A stretch of 64,000 nucleotides of DNA, taken from sequence record SRR22947725_833; one strand, written 5' to 3'. Shown in pieces: positions 17,997 to 41,523 of the stretch (position 1 is its first letter; every line of letters begins with the position of its first letter). The position numbers and the translations under genes are program-made. The notes beneath the pieces were generated by a model. It worked only from the letters and a program-made list of their open reading frames with translations. It did no database searches and was not told the DNA's origin.

Positions 17997-20080
17997 TGAC
18001 CCACCCTCTTAACAACTATGCTACCATCTTCCCTTCCTTCTGATATAAAATTTGTTGGAATTATAATTGTTGTTTCATCCTCAACCAACACAGCTGGCCC
18101 AGTAAAATAATTAGAGCTATTCATCACTTTTCGGTCAGCTATTTTTGCCTCGGTAAATTTTCCTAAGGCTGGATCAAATACATCACGAAAGCTGGTACTT
18201 TCCAGCTCAGTTTTTGATTTATTGGAAACAAAAGTAGAATCAGGATAATCTAAAACTGTATTCGTCACAGCATTTACTGACCAAACAGTAATCTCAACAT
18301 CTAACCCTTGCACTAAGCGACCAAATAAAGATTTGTATTGTAGTTCGAATGCTTCTTGAAACTTATTTTTGGTAGGGGCAACCATTTGAATGTTATCAAT
18401 AATCACAGGTATCTCCCAACCCTGCCCAGAATATCGCATATAAGCTTTCGCCTCGATGACTATTTTTTCTTCAGTGCCGCATTTTTTTACGAAGCTTGTA
18501 GATTCATTGGTTAACTCTCCTAAAATCTTTAAAACAATTTCTTGATCAAACTTCCCTAGTGGCATAAAAACACTTTTGGTTGCTTCAAAGCTAAATGGAG
18601 CACGTAAGAAACCGATAGCTGAACCCACACCCGCTCCCGGAGGAACAATAAACTTTTTGATGCCTAACTTTTGACACAATCTAGCGGCATGTAAGGGAGC
18701 AGCACCACCAAAAGCAATCATTGTGAATTCTGCTAAATCCTCACCATTTTCTACAGCATGCATTCTTGCAGCGTTTGCCATATTTTCGTCTACAACCTCG
18801 GAAACACCGAACGCACTTTCAATGGGCTCCATAGAAAGTGCTTCTCCAATTTCCTTTCTCAATGCAACTTTTGATTTTTCTACGTTAAGAGTTATGGACC
18901 CTCCAGCAAAATTATCACCATCCAAACGACCTAGTAATAAATCAGCATCCGTAACAGCCGGTCGATTTCCACCAAGATCATAGCAAGCGGGGCCTGGTTT
19001 CGAGCCCGCACTTTCTGGTCCAACTCGGATTTGATTCATCGAGTCGATATTTGCTAATGACCCACCACCTGCCCCAATCTCAACCATGTCAATTACAGGT
19101 ATCGAAATTGGCATACCTGATCCTTTTTTAAATCGATACGTCCTGGCTACTTCAAATACCCTAGCAGTCTTTGGCGATTTATCCTTAATCAAACAAATTT
19201 TTGCCGTGGTTCCCCCCATATCAAAAGAAAGAACCTTATCAAGGCCATGTTTTTCAGCAATTTTTGCTGCAAAAATCGCTCCACCAGCTGGCCCACTTTC
19301 AATTAGGCGGACTGGAAATTCAGTAGCACTATCAAGGGAAATAATCCCTCCCCCAGAATGCATCAAAAATACTGGACAATTAATTTCTTGTTCTAACAAC
19401 CGGCTTGTCAAACGATCTAAATAGCTCTTCATCATAGGCTTCACGAAAGCATTAGCACAAACAGTATTGAAACGTTCATACTCTCGCATTTGTGGTGACA
19501 CCGCCGATGATAACGACACACTTACATGCGGAAGTCTCTCTTTTAAAGATTTCTCTAACATACGCTCGTGGCTTGGGTTTAAGTAAGAGTGGATAAAGCC
19601 AACTGCTACACTTTCAAAATTTGCCACTTGAATTACATCAATCAATTGATCAACGTCTTCTTGCCTTAATTCTTTTAGAATACTTCCTTTTGAATCAACT
19701 CTCTCGTTTAATGTATATCGACAGTTTCTGGGAACTAATGGTGTCGGTAAAACTAAGTTTAAATCATATTGTTCAAAACGACTTTCCGTACGCATTTCGA
19801 TTACATCTCGAAAACCCTCTGTCGTAATCAAAGCTATTTTAGCTCCACGCCTTTCAATCAAAGAGTTCGTAGCTAAAGTAGTACCATGGATTATCTGCTC
19901 TATCTCACTAGGAAGTATACCAGACTTCTGACAAACGCCTTTGACACCCTCTATTATAGCATCTTCTGGAATGTCAAAAGTAGTTAACACTTTATTAGAG
20001 TATAGTTTTCCTTGATGCTCTAAAACAACGTCGGTAAACGTGCCGCCTATGTCTACGCCTAATCTAGATCTTTTTTTCAT
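17993..20080 (-). CDS. Hydantoinase A / oxoprolinase ATP-binding subunit
   Basis: GVDIGGTFTD, HGTTLATN, ESGPAGG, DMGGTT, GAGGGS, AFGGAAPLH. Confidence 0.92.
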   Translation of the reverse strand: MKKRSRLGVDIGGTFTDVVLEHQGKLYSNKVLTTFDIPEDAIIEGVKGVCQKSGILPSEIEQIIHGTTLATNSLIERRGAKIALITTEGFRDVIEMRTESRFEQYDLNLVLPTPLVPRNCRYTLNERVDSKGSILKELRQEDVDQLIDVIQVANFESVAVGFIHSYLNPSHERMLEKSLKERLPHVSVSLSSAVSPQMREYERFNTVCANAFVKPMMKSYLDRLTSRLLEQEINCPVFLMHSGGGIISLDSATEFPVRLIESGPAGGAIFAAKIAEKHGLDKVLSFDMGGTTAKICLIKDKSPKTARVFEVARTYRFKKGSGMPISIPVIDMVEIGAGGGSLANIDSMNQIRVGPESAGSKPGPACYDLGGNRPAVTDADLLLGRLDGDNFAGGSITLNVEKSKVALRKEIGEALSMEPIESAFGVSEVVDENMANAARMHAVENGEDLAEFTMIAFGGAAPLHAARLCQKLGIKKFIVPPGAGVGSAIGFLRAPFSFEATKSVFMPLGKFDQEIVLKILGELTNESTSFVKKCGTEEKIVIEAKAYMRYSGQGWEIPVIIDNIQMVAPTKNKFQEAFELQYKSLFGRLVQGLDVEITVWSVNAVTNTVLDYPDSTFVSNKSKTELESTSFRDVFDPALGKFTEAKIADRKVMNSSNYFTGPAVLVEDETTIIIPTNFISEGREDGSIVVKRVGQ

Positions 20081-20268: not shown

Positions 20269-20301
20269 GAGTCATGACTCGCGTAGACTAAAAAGTCATG
20301 A
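20269..20301. promoter_or_regulatory. Candidate operator: perfect 12-bp palindrome GAGTCATGACTC plus a second AGTCATGA copy
   Basis: Palindrome at 20269-20280. AGTCATGA occurs at 20270 and again at 20294. Lies in the divergent promoter region between hydantoinase A and tauA. Confidence 0.4.
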
Positions 20302-20384
20302 TATGAGACTCTTCTATAAAAAATGATTCTAATTTTTATAAAATTTTTTTGAATCATAATATTAAACAAAACCAAGGGGGGAAT

Positions 20385-21356
20385 ATGAAAAATATTTTTA
20401 AAAAGGTTACTACCTTAGTAGCAACCACGGTAACACTAGCGGCTACATCTGCTTCATACGCAGCAGACAGCGTAAATGTGGCTTTCTTTTTAGAATGGGG
20501 TACACCAAACCAAATCTCTAAAGTCGACAAAGCTTATGACGATGCTATGGGTGTCGATGTGAACTGGACTGACTTCTCAACAGGCGTTCAAATGACAGAA
20601 GCAATGTTAGCTGGTGATATAGATATCGCTTACTCACAAGGGCTAGCGCCATTTGTTACTGCAATCCAACAAGGGCATCCTCTGAAGATGGTTGGTGTGG
20701 CAATGGTCTACGAAGCAAATGATTGCTTCGTGAAAAATGGTCTAGGGATAGACTCATCAAATGCTTCTGAGCTTGAAGGAAAAACTGTTGCTGTACCTTT
20801 AAACACAATGGCAGACTTTGCGTTCAAAAGCTACATGAACGCTTTGAATGTTGACATGTCAACAATGACGATTGTTGATCAAGCACCAGCGGACGGCGCA
20901 AAATCTCTTGCAGATGGTGCAGTTGATATGGCTTGTATTTTCGGTGGCAACTCGTCAAAAGCAGCTGGAGAAGTTGGAACACCAATTATGACTTCTGCCC
21001 AAAAAGTAGAAATGGGAATTGGGTCTTTTGATGTCATCTCAGTAACTGAAAAATTTGCAACAGAAAACGGTGATCTTCTAAGAACTTTCCTTGACGTTAC
21101 CGCCGAGGCAAATGCAGCATGGAAAGCTACTGATGCACAACTTGCAAAAGTTGCAGCCGACGCTGGAATGAGTGTTGAAGACGTAACTTCTCAAATGGCT
21201 GGAATGATTTTCATGACAGAGGCAGATCAGCTCAAAAACTATTTTGGAAAAGACGGTATTGCCGCTAGTGCTGCTGCTGCTCTAGGTACTCTGTTCTCAG
21301 ATTCTTCTGATGGAGTTACTATAGCAAAAACAATAGACGGTTCATTCCTAGACTAA
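20385..21356 (+). CDS. tauA: Taurine ABC transporter substrate-binding protein
   Basis: ATG at 20385 with RBS GGGGGG. Signal peptide ending ASYA; VAFFLEWGTP, W..F.TG..M..A...GDIDIAYSQG. Upstream of tauB, tauC, tpa, xsc. Confidence 0.88.
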   Translation: MKNIFKKVTTLVATTVTLAATSASYAADSVNVAFFLEWGTPNQISKVDKAYDDAMGVDVNWTDFSTGVQMTEAMLAGDIDIAYSQGLAPFVTAIQQGHPLKMVGVAMVYEANDCFVKNGLGIDSSNASELEGKTVAVPLNTMADFAFKSYMNALNVDMSTMTIVDQAPADGAKSLADGAVDMACIFGGNSSKAAGEVGTPIMTSAQKVEMGIGSFDVISVTEKFATENGDLLRTFLDVTAEANAAWKATDAQLAKVAADAGMSVEDVTSQMAGMIFMTEADQLKNYFGKDGIAASAAAALGTLFSDSSDGVTIAKTIDGSFLD

Positions 21357-21379
21357 ACGTCTAAGGGAACTAAATAAGT

Positions 21380-21406
21380 GAGCAAGGCCTTCCCAAGGCC
21401 TTGCTC
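21380..21406 (+). terminator. Intergenic stem-loop after tauA (partial terminator or mRNA stabiliser)
   Basis: GAGCAAGGCCTT-CCC-AAGGCCTTGCTC, a perfect 12-bp stem followed by a weak U-tract (CATTT). Confidence 0.7.
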
Positions 21407-21453
21407 CATTTAATAGAAATAATTATTAAATTTATTCTTATCGGTGGTTTAAA

Positions 21454-22251
21454 ATGTCAGATTTGATTTGTAAAAACCTAAATATGACTTTTACAAACCC
21501 TCAAACTGGCTCTAAAATTGAGGCTCTGAAGGATATAAACTTCTCTCTAAAAAAAGGTGAGTTGTTATCTGTGTTAGGTCCATCTGGTTGTGGCAAAACT
21601 ACACTTCTAAACATGATTGCTGGGTTTCTAAACCCAACTGCGGGAAGTATGTCCTTGGGAGGCAACCTTATTGAAGGTCCAAGTGTCGAAAGAGGTATGG
21701 TCTTTCAACAAGGAGCATTATTTGAATGGTTAACAGTATCAAAAAATGTAGATTTCGGTTTAAGAATGAAAAAAACACCTAAGGCTGAAGCCACGAAGCT
21801 TGTTGATAAATGGCTTAATATCGTTGGCCTGCAGGGATTTGGAGATACCCCAACTTATCAATTATCAGGAGGCATGCAACAACGTGTTGCTCTTGCCAGA
21901 TGTCTAGTAAATGATCCCGATGTCATTTTAATGGATGAGCCACTTGGAGCTCTAGACGCACTTACTAGAGAGAAAATGCAATCCCTAATATTAGAGTTAT
22001 GGAAAGAAACTGGAAAAACTATTTTGATAATTACTCACTCTGTGGAGGAGGCACTCCTACTGGGAGAGCGTCTCTTCGTTATGGCCCCTCGACCTGGACG
22101 CATTCATAAAGAGTATAAGCTACCATTTGCGGAAGAGGGACTAACCAAACCACTAAGAGAAATAAAACATGATACTCGTTTTGGGGATGTAAGAGAAGAG
22201 ATCCTTTCTATGATTTGGGATATGGAAGAGGAGATAATGGGCGGTGCTTAG
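21454..22251 (+). CDS. tauB: Taurine ABC transporter ATP-binding protein
   Basis: GPSGCGKT, LSGGMQQR, MDEPLGALD, ITHSVEEA; NitT/TauT family. Confidence 0.92.
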   Translation: MSDLICKNLNMTFTNPQTGSKIEALKDINFSLKKGELLSVLGPSGCGKTTLLNMIAGFLNPTAGSMSLGGNLIEGPSVERGMVFQQGALFEWLTVSKNVDFGLRMKKTPKAEATKLVDKWLNIVGLQGFGDTPTYQLSGGMQQRVALARCLVNDPDVILMDEPLGALDALTREKMQSLILELWKETGKTILIITHSVEEALLLGERLFVMAPRPGRIHKEYKLPFAEEGLTKPLREIKHDTRFGDVREEILSMIWDMEEEIMGGA

Positions 22252-24172
22252 TTGGGTTTCTGAAGAGAGAGCTTTCATTGCCGCTATAGTAATAATTTTA
22301 TTACTTTTATGCTTTACAATATCTATTTTCATCGGCGTGAAACAAACAGCTTTTAGAGAAAAAGATGAGGTTTTTGGCGATCCTGAACGAACTTTGGGAG
22401 GGTGGTATTGGACTGTAACAGGTGTTTCTTCAGTTTTGTTACTGTGGTTTTATTTTTCTTGGGGAATTGGAAGAGCATTCTTTCCTGAAGCTGGAAATGA
22501 AATGTGTCAGATCGCTAAGTTGGAAACTGCTATTGCCCCAATAACTGCTACCTTACCAATAAACACTCGGTACTTTAAATCAACAACATTAACTAGAAGA
22601 AATTCTGAACAGCTAGAAATATTACTATCTAGCATGCCTACTAGCATTTTTACCAAAATCGAACAAACCGAGTTAATAGAAATTATTGAAAACTCAAAGG
22701 CTATAATTGGAATCTTTTCAAATCAGAAAAACCAAAGCAAAGAATCAGTATCTTCTTTAAAAAAAATCAGTTCCGATTTAAGAAACCTTAGCGTAGAGCT
22801 TCGTTTGGGTTTTGATGGTTACTTACCCTCCAAAGAAGCATTAGCTCAACCAAATTGGGGAACAACAAACATAGAAATTCCATTACTTCCGATCACATCC
22901 AAGGGGGTATTATTTGATTCAATTAGTAATCAAGCCAGTATTATAACAAAAACTTTTCTTAAAACTCGTAACAACTCTAATGCTGGAGATACCCTTATAG
23001 AATCCACTAAAAAGAAAATCTCTTTACTTAAGGCCACCAATAAGTCCTCTATCTTTGATGAGGACATTTTAATTAGAAGAAAAGCCTATGTTAAGGCAGT
23101 TGAAAGAATATTTAAAAGATTAGATGATGGAACAATTTTCCCACCCAAGGCATTTGATGGCTTAAACTATGCTGTAACAGACCTATTCACAGCAATAGAT
23201 GAGACTAAGGGAGGTCTAAAACTAATTGATACACTATTTGTCCCAGGAGCTGGAGTAATCAAGTCTAGGACGCAATGTACTGAGCAAGGTTCTGGAAGAT
23301 GGTTACCCAAACCTACTGACGTAATCGCTTCTTTTTTAAAGTTGGCCAACCCTAATATAGAAGCGGGTGGAGGGTACAAAGGTTCAACGCTCTTTTGGTG
23401 GAAGTGGCTTCCAATTGCCGATTTAATTGGATTTATAATTCCCGATAAAGTTATTGATTTGCTACCTGGGGAATATGGCAGGCATTCAGACACTGGTAAT
23501 TTTCAATCTAATTACAAAGATAATTTGTTGGCTCTAGCACAGGGAGATATATATTTAGGTTCTATCCCTATGCTAGATGGACACATATGGGACTCTGTAT
23601 TTCGGGTATTGGTTGCTCTAATTTTAGGTATTGGTTTAGGGGTCCCCTTAGGCATCTATATGGGGGTGTCTCGTTTTTTTAAATCATTTTTTGATCCAAT
23701 TATTGAACTTTATCGTCCAGTTCCACCACTGGCTTGGGCTCCATTAATTTTAACCATCTTTGGAATAAATGATGATGGAAAAATTTTCCTTTTATTTATG
23801 GTGGCATTTGCAATTATGGTAATTTCTGCACGAACCGGAGCATCAGGTACGCAGCTATCAAAAATTAGAGCTTCGCATTCACTTGGAGCATCTAATCGTC
23901 AAATATTAAGGTATGTTATTTTACCAAATGCCTTGCCAGAAATTTTAACAGGGATAAGAATATCTATTGGTGTTTGCTGGGGAACCTTGGTTGCCGCTGA
24001 AATGTTAGCGGGCACAACCGGAATCGGGTTTATTGAAAACGTAGCCCGTGTTGTATCTAATTATGAGTTAATATGGGTGACAATTTTAATAATGGGGTTA
24101 CTTGGCCTAGCGTTTGACATTATGATGCGACGAATAATTAATAAAACCATTCCATGGCGCGGTAAGGGTTGA
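22244..24172 (+). CDS. tauC: Taurine ABC transporter permease with a very large soluble insertion
   Basis: The C-terminal ~200 aa is a canonical NitT/TauT permease (HIWDSVFR, RPVPPLAW, EAA-loop ASHSLGAS). The N-terminal ~440 aa has two hydrophobic helices and a long hydrophilic region. Confidence 0.88.
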   Translation: MLSWVSEERAFIAAIVIILLLLCFTISIFIGVKQTAFREKDEVFGDPERTLGGWYWTVTGVSSVLLLWFYFSWGIGRAFFPEAGNEMCQIAKLETAIAPITATLPINTRYFKSTTLTRRNSEQLEILLSSMPTSIFTKIEQTELIEIIENSKAIIGIFSNQKNQSKESVSSLKKISSDLRNLSVELRLGFDGYLPSKEALAQPNWGTTNIEIPLLPITSKGVLFDSISNQASIITKTFLKTRNNSNAGDTLIESTKKKISLLKATNKSSIFDEDILIRRKAYVKAVERIFKRLDDGTIFPPKAFDGLNYAVTDLFTAIDETKGGLKLIDTLFVPGAGVIKSRTQCTEQGSGRWLPKPTDVIASFLKLANPNIEAGGGYKGSTLFWWKWLPIADLIGFIIPDKVIDLLPGEYGRHSDTGNFQSNYKDNLLALAQGDIYLGSIPMLDGHIWDSVFRVLVALILGIGLGVPLGIYMGVSRFFKSFFDPIIELYRPVPPLAWAPLILTIFGINDDGKIFLLFMVAFAIMVISARTGASGTQLSKIRASHSLGASNRQILRYVILPNALPEILTGIRISIGVCWGTLVAAEMLAGTTGIGFIENVARVVSNYELIWVTILIMGLLGLAFDIMMRRIINKTIPWRGKG

Positions 24173-24278
24173 TAAGATCTCATCTTCCTAATAGAAATTA
24201 AAAATAAAAAGTGTCAGACAGTAATCGAAGAAACACATATACCTAGTTTTAAAGCTTATATTGGAAAGGATTAAAGTT

Positions 24279-25664
24279 ATGGATGGAAATTTAAATAGTA
24301 ACGATATTTCAAAAATTGTTGAAGCAGACCGTGCTCACGTATGGCACCACTTAATACAACATAAGCCATTTGAAACTATTGATCCGCGTATAATTGTTGA
24401 AGGCAAAGGAATTAAAGTCTGGGACCAACATGGTAAAGAACATTTGGATGGCGTTTCTGGGGGTGTTTGGACAGTAAACGTAGGGTATGGTCGTGAAAGC
24501 ATTGCAAATGCTGTGAGAGATCAACTCGTTAAACTCAACTACTTTGCTGGTTCCGCAGGATCAATTCCAGGAGCACTCTTTTCAGAAAAGCTTATTGAGA
24601 AAATGCCAGGTATGAGCAGAGTATATTTTTCAAACTCTGGATCAGAAGCTAACGAGAAAGGCTTCAAAATGATCCGCCAAATTGCTCACAAAAAATACGG
24701 TGGTATTAAAAATAAAATATTATTCCGTGAAAGAGACTACCATGGAACGACAATAGCTTGTCTATCGGCAGGAGGTCAGCCTGAACGAGGAGCCCAATAT
24801 GGTCCTTATACGCCAGGTTTTGTAGAAGTGCCTCATTGTCTTGAATATAGAAACCAATATGGTGTGTGTGAAGAAGGGTATGGAGTACGAGCAGCGAAAG
24901 CTATTGAAGAAGTAATTCTACGAGAGGGACCTGATACTGTTGGTGGCATTTGCTTAGAGCCTGTAACAGCGGGAGGAGGAGTAATAACTCCACCGATCGG
25001 TTACTGGGAAACTGTGCAAGAAATTTGTTCAAAGTATGATATCCTTCTCCATATAGATGAGGTTGTTTGTGGGCTTGGTAGAACTGGAACCTGGTTTGGA
25101 TATCAAAATTATGATGTTAAACCAGATATCGTGACTATGGCAAAAGGTGTTGCATCAGGTTACGCAGCAATCTCTTGTACGGTTACGACTGAAGAGGTTT
25201 TTGAACTATTTAAAGACGACAGCACGGATCCAATGAATTATTTTAGAGATATCTCAACATTTGGAGGGTGTACCGCCGGCCCAGCAGCAGCTATGGAAAA
25301 TATGCGTATCATCGAAGATGAAAACCTTCTGCAAAACACTATAGATATGGGCGCTCGTCTAGTTTCCAATCTAAACAATCTTGCAGAAAAGCATGAAGTC
25401 ATTGGTGATGTTAGGGGTGCGGGCCTATTTTGTGGCGCCGAACTAGTAGCAGATAGAAAAACTAAAGAACCACTAAACGAAAAAATTGTTCAAAGTATAG
25501 TCGGTGACTGCATGCAGCAAGGCGTTATCATTGGGGCTACTAATCGATCGCTTCCTGGATTAAACAATACACTTTGTTTTAGTCCAGCCTTAATTGCAAC
25601 ACCTGATAATATCGACACAATAACTGATGCAGTTGATCAGGCGCTAACACGTATTATAAAATAA
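24279..25664 (+). CDS. tpa: Taurine-pyruvate aminotransferase (class III PLP enzyme)
   Basis: ATG at 24279 with RBS GAAAGGA. DRAHVWHH, NSGSEANE, YHGTT, DEVVCG.GRTG, TMAKG (PLP lysine). Sits between tauC and xsc. Confidence 0.9.
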   Translation: MDGNLNSNDISKIVEADRAHVWHHLIQHKPFETIDPRIIVEGKGIKVWDQHGKEHLDGVSGGVWTVNVGYGRESIANAVRDQLVKLNYFAGSAGSIPGALFSEKLIEKMPGMSRVYFSNSGSEANEKGFKMIRQIAHKKYGGIKNKILFRERDYHGTTIACLSAGGQPERGAQYGPYTPGFVEVPHCLEYRNQYGVCEEGYGVRAAKAIEEVILREGPDTVGGICLEPVTAGGGVITPPIGYWETVQEICSKYDILLHIDEVVCGLGRTGTWFGYQNYDVKPDIVTMAKGVASGYAAISCTVTTEEVFELFKDDSTDPMNYFRDISTFGGCTAGPAAAMENMRIIEDENLLQNTIDMGARLVSNLNNLAEKHEVIGDVRGAGLFCGAELVADRKTKEPLNEKIVQSIVGDCMQQGVIIGATNRSLPGLNNTLCFSPALIATPDNIDTITDAVDQALTRIIK

Positions 25665-25687
25665 GATTTAAGCTGGAGAAATTATTT

Positions 25688-27457
25688 ATGAAAATGACTA
25701 CAGAAGAAGCATTTGTAAAAACATTACAAATGCACGGTATCAGCCAAGCATTTGGTATCATTGGATCAGCGATGATGCCAATATCAGATTTATTTCCAGC
25801 GGCAGGAATCAAGTTCTGGGATTGTGCGCATGAAGGTAGCGCTGGGATGATGGCAGACGGTTACACACGCGTAACTGGGCAGGTTTCAATGATGATTGCT
25901 CAAAATGGTCCTGGAATAACTAACTTTGTTACAGCGGTAAAAACTGCGTACTGGAATCATACACCCCTACTTCTAGTAACACCTCAAGCTGCTAATAAAA
26001 CTATTGGACAAGGTGGTTTTCAAGAGGTTGAGCAGATGAAACTATTTGAAGATATGGTAGCTTATCAAGAAGAGGTTCGTGATCCATCCAGAATTGCAGA
26101 AGTTTTAAATAGAGTAATTCAAAAAGCTAAAAGAGCTAGCGCGCCAGCTCAAATTAATGTTCCAAGAGATTACTGGACTCAAGTGGTTGATATTGAACTT
26201 CCAGCAATCGTTGATTTTGAGCTTCCGTCTGGAGGAAAAAAAGCATTATCAGATGCAGCTCAACTACTGAGTACCGCTTCGTTTCCGGTAATTCTAAATG
26301 GAGCAGGTGTCGTACTTTCAGGTGGGATTAAAGCATCAATGGAATTAGCAGAACGACTAGATGCACCTGTATGTTGTGGTTATCAACACAATGATGCATT
26401 CCCAGGATCTCATCCACTATTTGCGGGGCCATTAGGTTACAACGGGTCTAAAGCAGGTATGGAGTTAATATCAAAAGCGGATGTTGTCTTAGGTCTAGGA
26501 ACACGGTTGAACCCATTCTCTACGCTACCTGGGTATGGCATTGATTATTGGCCAGTAAATGCAAAAATAATTCAGGTAGATTTAAACCCTGATCGAATTG
26601 GCCTAACAAAGCCAGTCTCAATTGGGATTGTTGGAGACGCAAAAAAAGTTGCAGAAGGCATTCTAAATAATCTAACGTCTGAAGCTGGTGATAAAAACAG
26701 AAGTGAACGTAAAGCACTCATTGCACAAACAAAATCCGCATGGGCTCAAGAACTTACTTCATTAGATCATGAAGAGGATGATCCAGGCACAACGTGGAAT
26801 GAACGAGCACGTGATCGTCAACCAAAGCATATGTCTCCAAGACAAGCTTGGCGCGCAATTCAAAGTGCTCTCCCAAAAGATGCCATTATTAGCTCAGACA
26901 TTGGAAACAACTGTGCCATTGGAAATGCCTACCCATCATTTGAGGAAGGAAGGAAATATTTAGCTCCAGGTCTTTTTGGACCTTGTGGCTATGGTTTTCC
27001 AGCAATAGCAGGAGCAAAGATTGGAAAGCCAAATATACCAGTTGTAGGTTTTGCAGGAGATGGCGCATTCGGTATTTCAATGAATGAGATGACAGCTGTT
27101 GGTAGGGGGGACTGGCCTGCGATAACCATGATAATATTTAGAAATTATCAATGGGGCGCAGAGAAAAGAAATACTACCTTATGGTTTGATGATAATTTTG
27201 TAGGGACTGAGCTAAACCTCGATGTGCGTTATGCTGATATAGCTAAGGCATGTGGTTTGTACGGAGTTCAGGTAACAACAATGGAACAATTAACTGAAGA
27301 ACTTGATAAAGCCATAAAAGCACAAATGAATGAGAATAAGACAACATTCTTAGAAGTTGTTTTAAATCAAGAATTAGGTGAGCCTTTCAGAAGAGATGCT
27401 ATGAAAAAGCCATCACATGTGGCAGGTATTTCAATGACAGATATGGCTGCAGAATAA
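25688..27457 (+). CDS. xsc: Sulfoacetaldehyde acetyltransferase
   Basis: MKMTTEEAFVK, GIIGSA, ThDP motif GDGAFG...N, QWGAEKRN, EPFRRDAM. Confidence 0.96.
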   Translation: MKMTTEEAFVKTLQMHGISQAFGIIGSAMMPISDLFPAAGIKFWDCAHEGSAGMMADGYTRVTGQVSMMIAQNGPGITNFVTAVKTAYWNHTPLLLVTPQAANKTIGQGGFQEVEQMKLFEDMVAYQEEVRDPSRIAEVLNRVIQKAKRASAPAQINVPRDYWTQVVDIELPAIVDFELPSGGKKALSDAAQLLSTASFPVILNGAGVVLSGGIKASMELAERLDAPVCCGYQHNDAFPGSHPLFAGPLGYNGSKAGMELISKADVVLGLGTRLNPFSTLPGYGIDYWPVNAKIIQVDLNPDRIGLTKPVSIGIVGDAKKVAEGILNNLTSEAGDKNRSERKALIAQTKSAWAQELTSLDHEEDDPGTTWNERARDRQPKHMSPRQAWRAIQSALPKDAIISSDIGNNCAIGNAYPSFEEGRKYLAPGLFGPCGYGFPAIAGAKIGKPNIPVVGFAGDGAFGISMNEMTAVGRGDWPAITMIIFRNYQWGAEKRNTTLWFDDNFVGTELNLDVRYADIAKACGLYGVQVTTMEQLTEELDKAIKAQMNENKTTFLEVVLNQELGEPFRRDAMKKPSHVAGISMTDMAAE

Positions 27458-27537
27458 ACTTAACAATAAGTTGGTTTTAATTTAAATATACTTAATAGTT
27501 GAGTTTTAAAACTTAGTGGAAACGGAGAAAATCTTCG

Positions 27538-28467
27538 ATGATAAAAGAAACTCCGTTCCTCTCTCAAATTTCACCTATTTGTCCAAAAGACTTACTAAAT
27601 AACGCAAAAAAAAAATTTATTAAGCCAATAATTGCGATAGCAGGAGCAGCTCATAAGTTGCCAATGTTAGCTGCAAAAGAGGCTGTCTTAGAACAAATTA
27701 TGACTCCAATATTTGTTGGTGAAAAGGCTTTAATAAAGTCGTGTGCCAGTGACCTAAATTGGGATATCTCAAACTTTCAAATTATAAATGTAACTGGTGA
27801 AACAGAATCTGCAGAAACTGCCGCTAAGTTATGCGGAGATGGGAAAGCAGATATTCTGATGAAAGGTCAGGTACATACCGACCTTTTTATAAAATCTGTA
27901 CTGGATAAAAAATCTGGGTTACGGACAAAACAAAGGTTAATTCATGTCTTTCATATATCACATCCCAATGGTGGTAATCCTTTATTAATTTCAGATGCCG
28001 CTATTAATGTTTCACCAGATCTGCAAACTCGTAAAGATGCTACAATTCAGATCGTTAAGCTACTCAAATCTCTAGGCAATAAAGAACCCAGAGTCGCATT
28101 TTTATCGGCCACAGAATCAATTCTAAAGTCAGTACCCTCATCTTTAGAAGCTAATATACTGTATGAATGGTGTTCAAAAAATATTAATAATGCACATTTT
28201 TCAGGACCATTAGCTCTAGATACATTACTTTCCTACAACGCGGCTGTCACAAAAGGTCTTCAAGAAAATCCAGTGGTAGGTCAACCTGATGCAATTATTG
28301 TTCCTGATATTGTATCAGGAAATGTTCTTTTTAAATCTCTGGTATATCTTTCTGGAGGTTGCGCAGCCGGATTAGTATTAGGAGCAAAAGTTCCCTTACT
28401 TCTAACAAGTCGGGCAGATCCCCCAGCAGCTAGATTAGCATCAATAGCTCTTGCAACATTAATCTAA
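27538..28467 (+). CDS. pta: Phosphate acetyl/butyryltransferase
   Basis: MKGQVHT, SDAAIN, GPLALD, GNVLFK, LTSRAD. Follows xsc, whose product is acetyl-phosphate. Confidence 0.85.
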   Translation: MIKETPFLSQISPICPKDLLNNAKKKFIKPIIAIAGAAHKLPMLAAKEAVLEQIMTPIFVGEKALIKSCASDLNWDISNFQIINVTGETESAETAAKLCGDGKADILMKGQVHTDLFIKSVLDKKSGLRTKQRLIHVFHISHPNGGNPLLISDAAINVSPDLQTRKDATIQIVKLLKSLGNKEPRVAFLSATESILKSVPSSLEANILYEWCSKNINNAHFSGPLALDTLLSYNAAVTKGLQENPVVGQPDAIIVPDIVSGNVLFKSLVYLSGGCAAGLVLGAKVPLLLTSRADPPAARLASIALATLI

Positions 28468-28571
28468 AAAAGAAAGCTTATCTTACAATTAATGTTCCTA
28501 TTAAAAGAAGATTCCACAACAGTGCGACAACAACACACACCGGTTAACAACTGTAAATTAAAAGGCTTGTA

Positions 28572-28600
28572 TTGACAATTTTTTGTGTTTACCTGATGCT
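28572..28600 (+). promoter_or_regulatory. Putative sigma70 promoter for sat-aprMBA
   Basis: Perfect TTGACA at 28572-28577, 17-bp spacer, weak -10 GATGCT. Confidence 0.4.
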
Positions 28601-28652
28601 TTTTTTCTGAGAAATATACAAAAATAGAGAACCTCCAAAGTGAAATCTTTTA

Positions 28653-29819
28653 ATGTTAGTTAACCCCCACGGCCAAGGTAATTTAATGCCTCTTCTTGTT
28701 TCAGAAGACACTAGGCCCGAAGAATTAAGACGTGCAGAATCATTTGTAAAAGTTCTACTATCGACTAGAGAGCTATCAGATTTATTAATGTTAGCGATGG
28801 GCGCTTATACGCCTTTAAAAGGCTTTATGGGTGAAGAAGATTGGCGCGGTTGCTGTTCAGATATGACTACGTCAGATGGTATATTTTGGCCGATCCCTAT
28901 TACCCTTTCAACATCGGAAGAGATAAGTAGTTCAATAAAGATTGGTGATGAAGTTGCCTTAGTTAATGATAGTTTAAAAATCTTCGGCACCCTAAAAGTT
29001 GAACAAAAATATAACATTGATAAAAATTATGAGTGTTTACATGTTTTTCGTACAGCAGATGCAGCTCACCCAGGGGTGGCGAAGATTTTAGAGCAAGGAA
29101 ATGTAAACTTATCGGGTCCAGTAAAAGTTTTAGACGAAGATCATTATCCAGAAACATATAAAGGATTGTACTATAAACCGAGTCAAACTCGCGCGCTATT
29201 TGAGGAAAACGGTTGGTCAACAGTAGCAGCTTTTCAAACTCGCAACCCTATGCATCGTAGTCACGAATATCTTGCGAAAATTGCTGTTGAGCTCTGTGAT
29301 GGGTTACTAATTCATCAGGTGTTAGGAGCATTAAAGCCGGGAGATATTCCAGCGGATGTTAGAGTTGAATCGATTAACAGCTTAGTTAAGAATTATTTTG
29401 TTCAGGGAACTGTTGTCCAAGCAGGTTACCCAATCGAAATGAGATATGGCGGACCAAGAGAGGCATTATTACACGCAGTTTTTAGACAAAACTTTGGATG
29501 CTCGCATCTAGTAGTTGGGCGTGATCATGCTGGTGCTGGTAAATACTATGGCCCTTTTGATGCTCACAAGATTTTTGATGAAATTCCTTCCGAAAGTTTA
29601 GAGACAAAAGCTATCAAAATTGATATTACTTTCTATTGCTACAAGTGTCATGGGATGGCTACAGGTAGAACTTGTCCACATGGCGAAGAAGACCGATTAA
29701 ATGTTTCAGGTACGAGGTTGAGAGAAATGCTTGCAAATAATGAGGCTGTTCCAACTGAATTTAGTAGACCCGAGGTTCTTGAAGTTTTACAGAAGTATTA
29801 TTATAACGCTGATAACTAA
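28653..29819 (+). CDS. sat: Sulfate adenylyltransferase (single-domain, dissimilatory type)
   Basis: [19 protein letters not shown], Zn site CYKC...CPH, FSRPEV. No APS-kinase domain. Confidence 0.96.
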
Positions 29820-29875
29820 AATAAGAAAACTTAGAAAGTACCAAGCCACAATTTAATGAAGCTAGGAAATACAAT

Positions 29876-30661
29876 ATGTTTGATATAAATCCCTTTGCCC
29901 AACTTTCTTCATCAGTACCACCTATTGTAATGCAATTATTTGTGATAGTGATGATCCTCATGGTTGCTGGTGGTACTTTGTTTGATATCATTCATAAAGG
30001 AAGTGCCAAGTACTTTTTCCAACTTGTCAATAAGAGTAGGACTAATGCCACAATTAACACTAGTGCTGGAGAAAAATTAGCTGTCGTTGTCAAGACAACA
30101 GCTCATGATGTTTTAACATCAGGAGAGTTTTGTAGTACTCGACGAAGAATTGCTCACCTTTTAACAATGTACGGTTTCATTATTTATGTAGTTTCAACAG
30201 TGATAATGGTATTCAGTTATTCATCATTAGATACCCTAACTCCTGCGATTCTGCCCTACCTTTGGTGGTTGGGAGGTGCAATGATTTGTATTGGAGGTTA
30301 CTGGTTTTGGTTTTTTATCAGGGTTGATGTATCTGCAGAGGGAAATTCTCCATTTCGATTAGTTCGAGCCGATTTGTTTGTTGTTTCACTTATGGCAAGT
30401 GTCACTTTTGGTTTAATCTGGGCTTATTTACAAGGTAATGGTAATTCCTGGTCAACTCTCGTTTTAGCCCTATACTTGATTACCACTCTTGTATTTTTTG
30501 GTTCAGTGCCTTGGTCAAAATTCTCACATATGTTTTTTAAACCAGCAGCCGCGTATCAAAAAAACTTAGCTGTCGCAAATGGTGGACGACGTAATTTACC
30601 CCCGCCATCTGATAGTCCGGCAATATACGGCAAAGCTCAACGCCATACCCATAACTATTAA
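29876..30661 (+). CDS. aprM: APS reductase membrane anchor
   Basis: About five hydrophobic helices, RRIAHLLTMYG, VPWSKFSHMFFKP. Sits between sat and aprB. Confidence 0.88.
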   Translation: MFDINPFAQLSSSVPPIVMQLFVIVMILMVAGGTLFDIIHKGSAKYFFQLVNKSRTNATINTSAGEKLAVVVKTTAHDVLTSGEFCSTRRRIAHLLTMYGFIIYVVSTVIMVFSYSSLDTLTPAILPYLWWLGGAMICIGGYWFWFFIRVDVSAEGNSPFRLVRADLFVVSLMASVTFGLIWAYLQGNGNSWSTLVLALYLITTLVFFGSVPWSKFSHMFFKPAAAYQKNLAVANGGRRNLPPPSDSPAIYGKAQRHTHNY

Positions 30662-30711
30662 TCGCTATATTAATTAAAACTGAATAGACCTTTAAACAGG
30701 AGTTAAAACAC

Positions 30712-31173
30712 ATGCCAACATTCGTTTATATGACAAGTTGTGACGGTTGCGGTCACTGTGTAGATATATGTCCCTCAGACATTATGCACATTGATCCAGT
30801 AACTCGTCGCGCAGTAAACATAGAACCAAACTTTTGCTGGGAGTGTTATTCCTGTGTTAAGGCTTGCCCTCAAAATGCTATAGACGTCCGTGGGTATGCA
30901 GACTTTGCGCCGATGGGTCATAGTGTTCGTTGCTTACGGGAAGAAGAAAAAGGTACAATTTCGTGGAAACTTAAGTTTCGTGATGGACGAGTAAAGGATT
31001 TTGTATCTCCAATAAGGACTACACCCTGGGGATCAATCAAAGCTGTGACAGAATATAGTGCACCTAGTGACGCAGCCTTTGATTCGCAAGAACTGGCGCA
31101 TGAGCCAGAATATCTAAAAATTGAAGGTGGCCTTCCAACCTACTCAGGTAAATTTAAAGAAGGAGTCGTATAA
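30712..31173 (+). CDS. aprB: Adenylylsulfate reductase beta subunit
   Basis: MPTFV, two [4Fe-4S] motifs CDGCGHCVDIC and CWECYSCVKAC, PIRTTPWG. Confidence 0.97.
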   Translation: MPTFVYMTSCDGCGHCVDICPSDIMHIDPVTRRAVNIEPNFCWECYSCVKACPQNAIDVRGYADFAPMGHSVRCLREEEKGTISWKLKFRDGRVKDFVSPIRTTPWGSIKAVTEYSAPSDAAFDSQELAHEPEYLKIEGGLPTYSGKFKEGVV

Positions 31174-33008
31174 TGGCTCGAAGAAAGACAATATACGTAG
31201 ATTCAGACATTCTGGTTGTAGGTGGTGGATTTGGTGGTTGTGGAGCAGCATACGAGTCAAGATATTGGGGTCGTGACAAAAAAGTTGTTGTTGTTGAAAA
31301 AGCAAATATCGAACGGAGCGGTGCCGTTGCACAAGGGCTTTATGCGATTAACTGCTACATGGGTATGCAGTGGGGTGAAAACACTCCAGAAGATTACGTC
31401 CGTTATCAACGTAACGACCTAATGGGTTTAGTTCGTGAGGATCTTGGTTACGACATCGGTCGACATGTTGATTCAACAGTACATATGTTTGAAGAATGGG
31501 GTTTGCCAATCATGACGGACCCAGAAACTGGTCGCTATCAAAGAGAAGGTAAGTGGCAAATCATGATACATGGTGAAAGCTACAAACCTATCGTCGCTGA
31601 GGCTGCCCGCAAAGCAGCAACAGAAGTCTATAATCGTATAATGGTTACACATTTACTTATGGACAAGAAAAAGAAAAACCGAGTTGCAGGAGCAGTTGGC
31701 TTTAACGTGCGTACAGGGGATTTTTATGTATTTAGATCTAAAGCAGTAATTATAGCAGCTGGTGGAGCGTCCCATATCTTTAAACCTCACTCAGCAGGAG
31801 AAGGCATGGGTAGGACATGGTATGCGCCATGGAGTAGTGCATCCGCGTACGCATTGCCCATCTTAACTGGGGCAAAAATGACTCAAATGGAAAACCGAAT
31901 TGTGTTAACACGGTTTAAAGACGGTTATGGTCCCGTAGGAGCATACTTTCTTCACTTGAAAACAACTACAGAAAATGCCTATGGGGAAGCTTATGAGGCA
32001 AAATGGCGGTCTTCAATTGAAGATATGGTAGGAGATTATGTAAATCATGAACCTACCCCTACTTGTCTACGAAACCACGCATTCTTAAAGGAAGTGGAGG
32101 CTGGAAGAGGACCGATCAGGATGGTAACGAAGGAGGCCTTTAAGGATCCCCATAAAGAAGTAATTGGTTGGGAAAATTTCTTAGGTATGACAATTGGCCA
32201 AGCGGTTGTATGGGCAGCAAACAATATTGACCCCAAAGAAACAAACCCTGAGCTGGTAATGTCTGAACCATACGTTATGGGATCTCACGCCACATGTTCT
32301 GGAGCTTGGGCGAGTGGCCCAGAAGATTATGCTCCAGATGAATACCAGTGGGGATATAATAGAATGATGACTGTTGATGGACTATTTGGAGCAGGTGATA
32401 CCCTTGGAGGGACACCCCATAAGTTTTCTTCAGGCTCCTTTACTGAAGGACGAATAGCAGGGAAGGCCGCAAATAAATACATAAATGATTTAGGCACAGA
32501 TCAACCAGAAGTCAGTGAGCAGGAATATGAAACTCTAAAGCAAATTATATATCAGCCTCTAGAAACTTATCGTGTTGGTCGTAATGAAATAACTGCAGGT
32601 ACAGTGTCACCAAGCTATTTGCTACCGCTTTCAGGTTTACAGAGGCTCGAAAAAATTATGGATGAATATGTTGGTGGTGCTGGCACACGATATATGACTA
32701 ATGAGCCAATGCTTACACGAGGTTTAGAACTTCTAAAAATGCTTAAAGAGGATTTAGCGTTCTTGGGAGCAGATAGTCTTCATCAACTCCAGAGATCTTG
32801 GGAGCTCCATCACAGGGTAATCGCGTCTGAATGTGTAACTCATCACACAATGTATAGAAAAGAGACGCGTTGGCCAGGATACTATTATCGTGGTGATCAT
32901 CCGCAACTTGATGATAAAGACTGGCATTGCTTCACTTTATCTAGCTACAATCAGGAGGCCGACGAATATTCTATGGAGAGCGCACCAGTGCATCATATTG
33001 TAGACTAA
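31173..33008 (+). CDS. aprA: Adenylylsulfate reductase alpha subunit (FAD)
   Basis: RSGAVAQGL.AINCY, WQIMIHGESYK, RFKDGYGPVGA, HKFSSGS, ETRWPGYY. TAATG overlap with aprB. Confidence 0.97.
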   Translation: MARRKTIYVDSDILVVGGGFGGCGAAYESRYWGRDKKVVVVEKANIERSGAVAQGLYAINCYMGMQWGENTPEDYVRYQRNDLMGLVREDLGYDIGRHVDSTVHMFEEWGLPIMTDPETGRYQREGKWQIMIHGESYKPIVAEAARKAATEVYNRIMVTHLLMDKKKKNRVAGAVGFNVRTGDFYVFRSKAVIIAAGGASHIFKPHSAGEGMGRTWYAPWSSASAYALPILTGAKMTQMENRIVLTRFKDGYGPVGAYFLHLKTTTENAYGEAYEAKWRSSIEDMVGDYVNHEPTPTCLRNHAFLKEVEAGRGPIRMVTKEAFKDPHKEVIGWENFLGMTIGQAVVWAANNIDPKETNPELVMSEPYVMGSHATCSGAWASGPEDYAPDEYQWGYNRMMTVDGLFGAGDTLGGTPHKFSSGSFTEGRIAGKAANKYINDLGTDQPEVSEQEYETLKQIIYQPLETYRVGRNEITAGTVSPSYLLPLSGLQRLEKIMDEYVGGAGTRYMTNEPMLTRGLELLKMLKEDLAFLGADSLHQLQRSWELHHRVIASECVTHHTMYRKETRWPGYYYRGDHPQLDDKDWHCFTLSSYNQEADEYSMESAPVHHIVD

Positions 33009-33018
33009 GGTACAATAA

Positions 33019-33780
33019 ATGTTGGTAGCACATATTTCCGACACACATATTATGGCACCAAAAGAACCTAACGAACGGTCACTAGAACGTATAAATTTCT
33101 TTCAGAGATGCGTAGACGATATTAATTCTTTAGGAACTATCCCAGATGTTGTTATACATACGGGTGACTTAACTGATAATGGTTTGCCGCGCGAATATAT
33201 TGTAGCTAAAGATATTTTAAAGAGCTTAAATGTCCCCTTTTTTCTAACACCAGGGAATCGAGATGGGAGCATGAGTATGATGGATTCTTGCGCTGAGGAT
33301 CTTAATATTTCTAAAAACCATGATTCTATGGTTTATGCAGTTAATGAGTTTTCAATTCGACTCATCTCCGTAGACACATCATCAACTCGAGGACCAAAAG
33401 GGGACTTAAGCACAAAGAAATTACAAAAATTAAAGAACCTCTTAAACGATTACCGAGATCAACCTACACTTCTGTTTATGCATCATCCCCCATTTAGTAT
33501 CTCATTAGGGGACAGTTCATATTTTGAATATGATCAACCAGATTCCATAAGGAAGTTCTGCAATCTTATACAAAATTACAAACAGGTAATAGGTATTTTT
33601 TGTGGACATATTCATAGAACTTATAACACTACGCTTGGCAATATTGAAGCTAACGTCATGCCTTCAATAGCGTTAGATTTGTCACAAGAAAGAATTACTA
33701 ACAAAGTACACTTACCTGTATATCACCTTCATAAGTTTTATGATGGGCTTAGATATGAAACTGAAATACGAAACACATAG
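33019..33780 (+). CDS. Calcineurin-like metallophosphoesterase (CpdA/GpdQ-like)
   Basis: HISDTH, TGDL, PGNRD (variant of GNHD), MHHPP, CGHIH. Confidence 0.85.
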   Translation: MLVAHISDTHIMAPKEPNERSLERINFFQRCVDDINSLGTIPDVVIHTGDLTDNGLPREYIVAKDILKSLNVPFFLTPGNRDGSMSMMDSCAEDLNISKNHDSMVYAVNEFSIRLISVDTSSTRGPKGDLSTKKLQKLKNLLNDYRDQPTLLFMHHPPFSISLGDSSYFEYDQPDSIRKFCNLIQNYKQVIGIFCGHIHRTYNTTLGNIEANVMPSIALDLSQERITNKVHLPVYHLHKFYDGLRYETEIRNT

Positions 33781-33822
33781 CTTTTTAACTAACCAAACAT
33801 CTCTCTTAAAAGGAAATTGAAC

Positions 33823-34173
33823 ATGCAGGAAACAGAGGAAGTAATTTTTAACACAATAAAAGATAATGGTGGGAATCGTTTAACACACTGTAGTATGGAG
33901 GATCATCCAGATATTGCTCTTGCAATTATGGGAGAAGACTTACCGCCTAACTATGTTGGTCCTCCTGATTTATTAGGAAAATTTAATGTAGAAATTCCTT
34001 CTGAGGCTGGAGAGATTGGTATTACTATCTGGTTTTCCACTCAAGAAGATAATGATAAAATGTCTATGATAATTCAAAAATTTATCGAATGGAGATTTCC
34101 AAAACTAGTTATTACTAAAGATACCACTATGGGTGTCTATGAACCTGGAAAACTTACAGTTAAAGTAGATTAA
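33823..34173 (+). CDS. Hypothetical protein (116 aa)
   Basis: Open frame with AAGGA upstream, co-directional with the apr operon. No motif recognised. Confidence 0.6.
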   Translation: MQETEEVIFNTIKDNGGNRLTHCSMEDHPDIALAIMGEDLPPNYVGPPDLLGKFNVEIPSEAGEIGITIWFSTQEDNDKMSMIIQKFIEWRFPKLVITKDTTMGVYEPGKLTVKVD

Positions 34174-34181
34174 GCTAAAAG

Positions 34182-34799
34182 TTAATCCGTATCAATTAAA
34201 CCAGCACCAGCTCCAAAACGGCGTGATATTTCGGAGGACGGAACATAGGTTTTTTTTGCAAGTATATCTAAGGCATCTATAACAAGGTCAGGAACAAGCT
34301 TCGGATCACCCAAATTAGATAAAACCTTCGTATTAGAGTGGCTGATTACTATTGAACTATCTATTATCTTGAATGAAAAAAAACACTTATATCTATTTTG
34401 AGCGTTAATAAGAAGAGGAAGGACTAATCTGTTCCATGGCATATCTCGTAAAACTACTGTTTGTACCCCACTGATTAGAGCATCAATAGCCATCGGTCCG
34501 CTAATAATAAACTTGGCCCGATTAATTGTGAGTATTTTATTATCCAAGCTTATTACAGGTTCATCCAAGGTATCGTATAAGGCTCCAACAAAAAAGCCCA
34601 TCCAAACCTGATCTGACATAAGTACTGATGCCAGTGAGGCCATTTCAAATGCGTGTCCGTTAGGTAAACCTCTCCCTCGACAAGCCTTAGAAATCAATGT
34701 GCTGACTTCATTCACAGAGTAGGATTTAACTGGCCATGTTCCCTCTTGATCAAGAAAGGTTTTCATCCAGTTTGTAATATACTTAGTATTTTTTTTCAT
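34182..34799 (-). CDS. DUF3726-like protein
   Basis: S.NEV.....KA.RG.GLP.G.A N-terminal motif and C-terminal TYVPSSE.SRR.GAGAGLIDTD. ATG at 34799 overlaps the upstream stop (ATGA). Confidence 0.75.
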   Translation of the reverse strand: MKKNTKYITNWMKTFLDQEGTWPVKSYSVNEVSTLISKACRGRGLPNGHAFEMASLASVLMSDQVWMGFFVGALYDTLDEPVISLDNKILTINRAKFIISGPMAIDALISGVQTVVLRDMPWNRLVLPLLINAQNRYKCFFSFKIIDSSIVISHSNTKVLSNLGDPKLVPDLVIDALDILAKKTYVPSSEISRRFGAGAGLIDTD

Positions 34800-38978: not shown

Positions 38979-41402
<2,424 letters not shown>

Positions 41403-41420
41403 TTATTTTGATTAAGACTA

Positions 41421-41449
41421 AATATAGCATTTTTTTGGCTGAATGTCAC
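41421..41449 (-). promoter_or_regulatory. Putative sigma70 promoter of gyrB
   Basis: Minus strand GTGACA-N17-TATATT, with the -10 ending 27 nt before the ATG. Confidence 0.55.
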
Positions 41450-41469
41450 GCAATTGCACAAGCCATTGT

Positions 41470-41504
41470 ATGATTATTTAACTAAATTTTGACTAAATAA
41501 TCAT
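41470..41504. repeat. AT-rich inverted repeat between recF and gyrB
   Basis: ATGATTATTTA (41470-41480) and TAAATAATCAT (41494-41504): perfect 11-bp arms with a 13-nt spacer. Confidence 0.75.
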
Positions 41505-41523
41505 CATATTTTTTTAAAAAAAT

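Follow-up and report, generated by a model that had tools for sequence, protein, structure and literature searches.

The 64,000-nucleotide stretch of DNA SRR22947725_833 (hereafter the window) carries on its + strand a set of genes apparently devoted to taurine uptake and cleavage (tauABC, tpa, xsc, pta), directly followed by sat and aprM-aprB-aprA, the genes of the route between sulfite and sulfate via adenosine 5'-phosphosulfate (APS). From gene content and order, we think it rather probable that a native taurine set and an acquired sulfite-oxidation module have become a joint unit, in which sulfite would be converted to APS and then to sulfate with formation of ATP. Xsc yields sulfite and acetyl phosphate, AprBA interconverts sulfite plus AMP and APS plus two electrons, and Sat interconverts APS plus pyrophosphate and ATP plus sulfate. 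In the pathway that we propose, taurine would be imported by TauABC and converted by Tpa into sulfoacetaldehyde, which Xsc would split into cytoplasmic sulfite and acetyl phosphate, the latter going on to acetyl-CoA through Pta; AprBA would then combine sulfite and AMP into APS, taking two electrons that AprM would deliver to ubiquinone, and Sat would turn APS and pyrophosphate into sulfate and ATP. The acquired block, six genes long and SAR116-like, would now directly follow pta in the native taurine set.

Using a listing of the open reading frames (ORFs) of the window and profile searches of these ORFs against NCBIfam and Pfam, we found ten consecutive + strand ORFs at 20349-33008 in the order tauABC-tpa-xsc-pta-sat-aprM-aprB-aprA, the genes proper occupying 20386-33008. 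The ten co-directional genes proposed in an earlier reading of this DNA from its letters alone (the sequence-only reading) are thus borne out by the ORF listing and both profile libraries, and its left edge, 20385, agrees with the likely start of tauA, an ATG at 20386 with a G-rich ribosome-binding site just upstream. Its right edge, placed at aprA, falls short, since a metallophosphoesterase gene and a small gene named o118 follow in the same direction and travel with sat-apr in relatives; the co-directional unit therefore ends at 34173 and comprises 12 genes, the next gene being convergent on the opposite strand. Intergenic gaps within the cluster are at most 97 bp, with the sole exception of the 185 bp between pta and sat. 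Xsc, Sat, AprB and AprA score above the curated NCBIfam cut-offs across their full length, and the gene identities given earlier are supported, the remaining names being partly contextual. The Pfam scan of the 51 non-overlapping window ORFs of at least 90 aa (17 + 34) detected no molybdopterin-oxidoreductase (Soe), SorA, TauE/SafE, YeiH (TauZ) or sulfite-reductase (Dsr) domain, in agreement with the absence of soeABC, sorAB, tauE, tauZ and dsr claimed previously, and Pfam scans found no Qmo- or Hdr-type ORF in the window. There is no regulator or sulfate exporter gene in the cluster and no tauR-like regulator in the window.

The sulfite half is of the type found in sulfur oxidisers. Sat contains the Pfam domains PUA_2 and ATP-sulfurylase only, with no APS-kinase domain, and its best solved relatives are 4dnx, which we take to be the Allochromatium vinosum enzyme, and 1jhd. 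AprB and AprA both belong to the dissimilatory-type equivalogs, their genes overlap by one base, and the solved relatives of AprA are 2fja and 1jnr (E 1e-203). For comparison we scanned species-representative genomes for AprA, which returned at least 601 stretches, and compared the best 80 AprA loci, a set in which SAR11 is not represented and from which other roseobacter AprA loci may also be missing. The gene that separates sat from aprB encodes a 261-aa membrane protein, which shows four strongly hydrophobic stretches and belongs to no Pfam family, with weak matches to QmoC/TcuB membrane domains (E about 1e-10; QmoC NCBIfam E 3.6e-10, far under its cut-off); we call it AprM because it occupies the identical position and is 40-69% identical to the gene directly 5' of aprB in 76 of the 80 loci. 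Its predicted structure is mostly helical (predicted local distance difference test, pLDDT, 79.5), and across 45 sequences H94 and H218 are invariant and H40 is nearly so. With aprM directly upstream of aprBA and no qmoABC in the window, the locus has the arrangement of the AprM-linked ("lineage I") enzymes, and AprA is 74-76% identical to those of Thiogranum and Ca. Thioglobus, whose loci likewise have aprM upstream; together with the Sat relatives, this supports the earlier assignment to an AprM-linked, sulfur-oxidiser-type Apr/Sat. AprM presumably links AprBA to the quinone pool; for Apr of the AprM type, the accepted hypothesis has electrons pass from AprB by way of AprM to quinone. The APS/sulfite couple lies at about -60 mV and ubiquinone at about +100 mV, which makes the flow from sulfite to quinone downhill and the reverse uphill. 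We favour the oxidative direction for Apr and Sat because of these redox values and because the organism appears to be an aerobe with ubiquinone.

In the taurine half, Xsc is the best-defined member: TIGR03457 covers residues 2-578 of 589, and the three thiamine diphosphate-enzyme domains PF02776, PF00205 and PF02775 are present. The names TauABC, Tpa and Pta are ones that we give from gene context. The three transporter proteins are members of the NitT/TauT family, for which the neighbouring genes suggest taurine as substrate, and miss the taurine-specific equivalog cut-offs (TauA 86.7 vs 304, TauB 274 vs 357 and TauC 182 vs 342 bits). TauC has, ahead of its permease domain, one hydrophobic helix and about 420 residues that belong to no known family (no Pfam or NCBIfam match at E <= 1, and none in the PDB) and that may be a fused periplasmic domain. 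The solved relatives of Tpa are generic omega-transaminases, with the taurine:2-oxoglutarate aminotransferase 6jix in the middle of the list (E 6e-53); the libraries hold no taurine-specific model, and from the position of its gene the product is presumed to be a taurine:pyruvate aminotransferase. The pta product has a PTA_PTB domain and finds as best profiles PRK08190, PRK11890 and phosphate butyryltransferase, missing the cut-offs of the first two (273.5 vs 282 and 259 vs 413 bits, respectively); its position after xsc points to acetyl phosphate as substrate. This gene is unlike the pta of plasmid-borne Rhodobacterales tau loci (L082, L083 and L086), the sole match being 24% over 133 aa.

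Table 1. Genes and sequence elements of the taurine-sat-apr cluster in the window.
Feature	Coordinates	Strand	Basis or remark
Perfect 12-bp palindrome (20269-20280) and partial second copy (~20294-20301)	20269..20301	.	Candidate operator, ~100 bp upstream of tauA
tauA-like, periplasmic substrate-binding protein, NitT/TauT family	20386..21356	+	NMT1 (Pfam); SsuA_fam (90.8 bits) and taurine_ABC_bnd (86.7 bits), neither reaching its cut-off
tauB-like, ABC ATPase	21454..22251	+	Top match PRK11248 (taurine ABC ATP-binding subunit), 274 bits, cut-off 357
tauC-like, permease, 642 aa	22244..24172	+	Permease domain at residues ~444-641
tpa-like, class-III (omega) aminotransferase	24261..25664	+	Aminotran_3; PRK07678 456.7 bits, cut-off 488
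xsc, sulfoacetaldehyde acetyltransferase	25688..27457	+	TIGR03457 921.9 bits, cut-off 676.4
pta-like, phosphate acyltransferase	27538..28467	+	PTA_PTB; PRK11890/PRK08190 type, below cut-off
pta-sat spacer, 185 bp	28468..28652	.	Putative border of native taurine genes and acquired module
sat, single-domain ATP sulfurylase, 388 aa	28653..29819	+	TIGR00339 391 bits, cut-off 322.95
aprM, membrane protein, 261 aa	29876..30661	+	Position between sat and aprB; identity to same-position genes
aprB, iron-sulfur subunit of APS reductase	30712..31173	+	TIGR02060 189.9 bits, cut-off 135.65
aprA, flavoprotein subunit of APS reductase	31173..33008	+	TIGR02061 953.8 bits, cut-off 641.75
Metallophosphoesterase, CpdA/GpdQ-like	33019..33780	+	10 bp after aprA; best solved relatives 2dxl/2zo9/3d03, E 2e-27
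o118, small acidic soluble protein, 118 aa	33817..34173	+	36 bp after phosphoesterase; last module gene

The module lies directly 3' of pta, in the slot occupied by soeCBA in Ruegeria pomeroyi. The positional parallel drawn in the sequence-only reading holds: in the available part of the re-annotation of that genome, soeC, soeB and soeA are SPO3557-3559 and adjoin pta (SPO3560), tauR being SPO3562 (PMC4334477). The accompanying claim that SoeABC is the usual partner at this place was overstated. Xsc is found on 172 plasmid records, and all six Rhodobacterales plasmid loci that we inspected have a TRAP (tripartite ATP-independent periplasmic) transporter, tauXY-like genes and xsc, after which comes a putative sulfate exporter of the YeiH type and, in three of them, pta; none of the six has soe, sat or apr look-alikes within 7-8 kb of xsc, in PLSDB gene tables that can be incomplete. 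Among metagenome-assembled genomes (MAGs), soeABC is scored in 3 of the 38 labelled AAPR in the available Table S17 of a 2025 roseobacter survey (PMC12661815).

The sat-aprMBA-phosphoesterase-o118 block looks laterally acquired from a SAR116-like marine alphaproteobacterial lineage. The closest AprA proteins among the matches listed come from two SAR116 single-cell genomes (loci L001 and L006; 86% and 89% identity) and not from roseobacters, and the order sat-aprM-aprB-aprA-phosphoesterase-o118 is common to both loci. In the AprA tree of 77 rows, which includes the aprM-bearing Thiogranum, Ca. Thioglobus, Chromatiales and Burkholderiales MAG rows and has no A. vinosum or Pelagibacter references, the window is sister to L006 (Shimodaira-Hasegawa-like approximate likelihood ratio test, SH-aLRT, 99), with L001 next (85), inside a five-row alphaproteobacterial clade. 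In the Sat tree, to which 21 metagenomic relatives were added, it falls in a 19-row clade (support 97) that contains L001, with L006 just outside. Two properties of these trees count against the acquisition: both are quick, unrooted searches with SH-aLRT values and no bootstrap, and L001 and L006 form long branches in the Sat tree. From the nesting and the rarity of aprAB among roseobacters, the direction would be from a SAR116-like lineage to the roseobacter, as far as unrooted trees can indicate. The accessory genes have diverged beyond AprA (38-43% identity of phosphoesterase and o118 to the SAR116 copies, vs 86-89% for AprA), and the G+C content at third codon positions and the codon usage of the module lie inside the range of the other 45 window ORFs; for both reasons a transfer, if any, would be old or from a compositionally similar donor. 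No tRNA, integrase or flanking repeat marks an insertion; the repeats near 27400-35200 are only two-copy, 14-27 nt long and 74-94% identical, and the window contains no tRNA and no Rfam family. Among 72,556 plasmids there was no lineage-I AprA (best identity 48.7%), and no plasmid vehicle was thereby identified. The plasmid protein at 48.7%, full-length and AprA-like, lies in an odd location, an unannotated 21.8-kb plasmid record from an enterobacterial isolate.

None of the 80 nearest AprA loci listed has a real Xsc, Pta, TauA or TauC beside sat or apr, the Xsc and Tpa matches being 22-29% paralogues only; for 70 of them, the sequence available upstream of the leftmost sat/apr gene measures 3 kb or more. 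Since this is so, and since unrelated genes flank the module in L001 and L006, the junction of xsc-pta with sat-apr appears to have arisen in the lineage of the window.

The two genes added to the module differ in their distribution. Of the 80 AprA loci, 23 encode a homologue of the CpdA/GpdQ-like phosphoesterase no more than 600 bp from sat/apr genes; they come from unclassified proteobacterial MAGs and from Alpha- and Gammaproteobacteria (L001, L003-L008, L010, L012, L014, L015, L017, L019, L020, L029, L034, L050, L053, L054, L057, L062, L063 and L073). We know of no role for such an enzyme in the APS pathway; its substrate might be APS, 3'-phosphoadenosine 5'-phosphate or its phosphosulfate (PAP(S)), or an AMP-supplying nucleotide. 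The o118 family is rare, with 15 representatives at E <= 0.001 among 1.84 billion proteins, and among the AprA loci listed it was found in two of 80 only, L001 (12674-13033) and L006 (12649-13026), each time at the same position as last gene of the module. Neither o118 nor the ORFs o213 and o563 match anything in Pfam or NCBIfam at E <= 1, and a protein atlas held no usable match to o118 either. In L001, an APS kinase gene (13101-13736) lies directly 3' of o118 and ties that SAR116 module to the formation of PAPS too.

The host is probably a low-GC, genome-streamlined pelagic member of the Rhodobacteraceae, of the Arctic-Atlantic Roseobacter (AAR) cluster, judging from sequence comparison. Xsc is 100% identical to proteins of Rhodobacteraceae/Paracoccaceae MAGs, with many entries at 99-100% on contigs of up to 1.9 Mb, which supports the roseobacter host named earlier, and its nearest cultured relative is Litoreibacter (85-88%). 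The 2025 survey, in its available part, covers 653 roseobacter MAGs and single-amplified genomes and describes three deep-branching, streamlined pelagic clusters with less than 39% G+C, of which the AAR cluster has a mean of 38.3% (PMC12661815). We tentatively assign the window to AAR because its G+C content (~38%) and its aprAB fit and its Xsc is of roseobacter type. The cluster is chromosomal and probably near the replication origin: dnaA-dnaN-recF-gyrB lie at 38979-45267, about 6 kb past the cluster end, and a class-I lysyl-tRNA synthetase gene is also present; a scan for DnaA boxes was uninformative (19 matches vs 20.8 expected). The presence of ubiE and ubiB in the window fits a ubiquinone organism. 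Upstream of the cluster, at 16287-20080 on the - strand and divergent from tauA, lies a hydantoinase/oxoprolinase A-B pair (caprolactamase-like, far under cut-off).

The same Table S17 scores aprAB in 19 of 20 AAR MAGs, all 19 without soeABC, the remaining one being soeABC-positive and aprAB-negative; aprAB is 0 in the rows of the 38 AAPR MAGs, of Ascidiaceihabitans and of part of COR (PMC12661815). As sox is found in none of the 20 AAR MAGs (Table S17, PMC12661815), apr in this cluster would not serve lithotrophic use of thiosulfate. One may tentatively picture an AAR-cluster ancestor in which a SAR116-like six-gene block displaced soeABC in situ, giving a taurine-to-sulfate operon that earns ATP and removing the last need for molybdenum cofactor, with the aprAB-negative, soeABC-positive species representing the ancestral state; we hold this for possible, yet doubtful.

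A single transcript from tauA to o118 is possible, as the pta-sat spacer has no + strand site resembling a consensus terminator or promoter in our consensus scans. The palindrome upstream of tauA (Table 1) was not found in this spacer. In the 97-bp tauA-tauB spacer lies a GC-rich hairpin of 12 pairs (21380-21406), which may adjust how much binding protein is made relative to transporter.

We infer from the genes the direction of the Apr/Sat reactions, the link of AprM to quinone, the co-regulation with the taurine genes and the functional replacement of Soe. Several points weigh against a joint unit as proposed here. The junction is known here from one assembly. The products of tauABC, tpa and pta, of the right superfamilies, stay under every specific NCBIfam cut-off. 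For AprM, the best hits of a fold search were EtfD and NarI, at template modelling (TM) scores of 0.35-0.40 and none at E <= 0.001, a non-significant resemblance. The assignment of the host is based on the names of Xsc matches, the G+C content and one paper, and the absence of soe in MAG tables is weak evidence because 35 of the 38 AAPR MAGs were scored negative too.

The same genes might form a general sulfite-detoxification module, which would take sulfite from any source (2,3-dihydroxypropane-1-sulfonate (DHPS), cysteate, sulfolactate, methanesulfonate or taurine) under its own promoter, its position after pta being without regulatory meaning. The SAR116 copies speak for this, as they sit among unrelated genes with none of the queried sulfonate genes beside them, so that the module does not need taurine genes; moreover, the gap between pta and sat, the largest in the cluster, could hold a promoter of its own, no motif is common to it and the region upstream of tauA (the longest common word, of 9 nt, was reached in 362 of 500 shuffles), and published views treat the apr genes of SAR11 and SAR116 in this way. 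We nevertheless consider it unlikely for the window, where the module is co-directional with, and comes immediately behind, the only sulfite-producing enzyme encoded there and the gap carries no terminator-like site on the + strand, and where the slot is the one held by the sulfite dehydrogenase of R. pomeroyi; by a back-of-envelope estimate, a chance landing co-directional and directly 3' of xsc-pta among some 2000 genes would occur about once in 4000 cases. A reductive direction, from sulfate over APS to sulfite, for assimilation or as "dissimilatory sulfate reduction to sulfite", agrees with the annotation of sat and aprAB in the available part of the roseobacter survey (PMC12661815) and with the APS kinase gene two genes past the phosphoesterase in L001, which links that locus to sulfate activation. 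It seems to us highly improbable, since Apr is of the AprM type with relatives in the sulfur oxidisers Thiogranum and Ca. Thioglobus, the window contains neither dsr nor sulfite reductase, the module adjoins a producer and not a consumer of sulfite, and, on the redox values given above, the quinol of an aerobic, ubiquinone-type host would reduce APS poorly. The accessible text of the SAR116 comparative paper and of a global metatranscriptome study likewise reads these genes as oxidative.

There is, in our estimation, very little chance that the junction is an artefact of assembly or binning in which another low-GC marine bacterium such as SAR116 contributed either the 5.7-kb block 28653-34173 or all sequence to the right of about 28468-28652. 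What would fit such a chimera is that the nearest AprA relatives among the matches listed are SAR116 and not roseobacters and that no AprA representative exceeds 87% identity, vs many Xsc entries at 99-100%, a gap that we tentatively attribute to clustering of the database at 90%; nor does composition protect against it, the tetranucleotide correlation between left and right flanks (0.86-0.87) being no different in kind from that between the window and L001 (0.85-0.88), and the Ca. Thioglobus locus being likewise inseparable. However, the closest Sat representative, at 98%, heads a cluster of 213 members, which points to a module of an abundant population, and aprAB recurs in a roseobacter cluster of 38% G+C, in 19 of its 20 independent MAGs, according to the available part of PMC12661815. 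The gene order shared with SAR116 breaks off to the left of sat and to the right of o118, so that two wrong joins would be required for an artefact of the insertion type; with identities of only 38-43% between the phosphoesterase and o118 and their SAR116 counterparts, no close SAR116 source is in view, and codon usage is uniform. We retain the joint taurine-to-sulfate unit as the favoured reading.

Taurine and other sulfonates are major currencies among phytoplankton, zooplankton and bacteria, and how heterotrophs dispose of the sulfite released from them has been argued so far mostly from gene presence, while oxic surface water is rich in aprAB transcripts that surveys, the one to first report aprAB from this roseobacter cluster included, still label "dissimilatory sulfate reduction". 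The physical join of a sulfite producer and the APS route is the clearest genomic argument yet that this route runs oxidatively on organosulfur sulfite. If true, two non-homologous modules, Soe and Sat/Apr, occupy one slot, and genes have crossed between the two streamlined groups of Alphaproteobacteria that are dominant in the surface ocean. The gain is one of evidence and annotation and not of principle, as the pathway is already known: the route from taurine through Tpa/Xsc to sulfite and AprAB/Sat, the use of apr by heterotrophs of the oxic ocean for cytoplasmic sulfite, and the occurrence of aprAB in one pelagic roseobacter cluster have all been described. The novelty lies in the gene order, in the presence of a SAR116-affine AprM-type module in a roseobacter host, and in the correction that this implies for a published annotation. 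We found no earlier description of xsc-pta joined to sat-apr in the full-text literature, whose coverage leaves out most subscription journals, so that this absence is unproven.

Several known systems resemble the cluster in part. In Allochromatium vinosum and other purple sulfur bacteria the order is also sat-aprM-aprB-aprA and the role oxidative, with sulfite from the lithotrophic rDsr pathway, in contrast to the window, which lacks dsr and sox and where an organosulfonate would be the source. The plasmid-borne Rhodobacterales TRAP-tauXY-xsc-tauZ-pta loci have an Xsc 76-80% identical to that of the window and also a sulfur-disposal gene directly after xsc, but their uptake is by TRAP, a taurine dehydrogenase takes the place of Tpa and a YeiH-type putative sulfate exporter that of an oxidiser, and their Pta is of another type. 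The aprABM and sat genes of SAR116 (HGC2-C, HGC2-D and LGC1) are the closest relatives among the matches listed and have the same six-gene order, but the two loci examined lack adjacent taurine, xsc or pta genes; the SAR116 comparative paper, in its available part, lists aprABM and sat for three genera of SAR116 and interprets these genes as serving to oxidise sulfite. The global metatranscriptome study interprets the expression of aprAB in the oxic ocean as detoxification of cytoplasmic sulfite in SAR11 and SAR116. SAR11 (Pelagibacter), with Tpa-Xsc and AprAB, is likewise a streamlined pelagic alphaproteobacterial heterotroph for which an AprM-type Apr has been proposed to act on organosulfur-derived sulfite, but most SAR11 are without Sat, as far as the consulted part of PMC10356861 states.

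The sponge symbiont 'Ca. Taurinisymbion ianthellae' comes close in pathway, with tauABC, tpa, xsc and pta and then AprAB and Sat for sulfite, a route that uses AMP and sulfite, gives ATP and quinone-bound electrons and, by the authors' account, is seldom found among taurine degraders (PMC10356861). Unlike the probable host here, it is a gammaproteobacterium with electron transfer by QmoAB-HdrBC, and the available text does not describe its taurine and apr genes as one cluster; the same text cites the taurine-AprAB/Sat route for SAR11, where Sat is mostly missing, for a symbiont of an oligochaete and for further symbionts of sponges (PMC10356861). The roseobacter survey lists the aprAB of AAR and, in its available part, annotates both sat and aprAB as "dissimilatory sulfate reduction to sulfite" without a link to taurine genes (PMC12661815). 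Closest in arrangement is tauR-xsc-pta-soeABC of Ruegeria pomeroyi DSS-3 (SPO3557-3562), again a roseobacter with a cytoplasmic, membrane-linked sulfite oxidiser directly after pta, as given in the available part of PMC4334477. The window differs from it in having tauABC-tpa in the same cluster and no tauR, and above all in the oxidiser itself: the molybdoenzyme SoeABC in R. pomeroyi and, here, Sat, AprM and AprBA, with which ATP would be gained by substrate-level phosphorylation.

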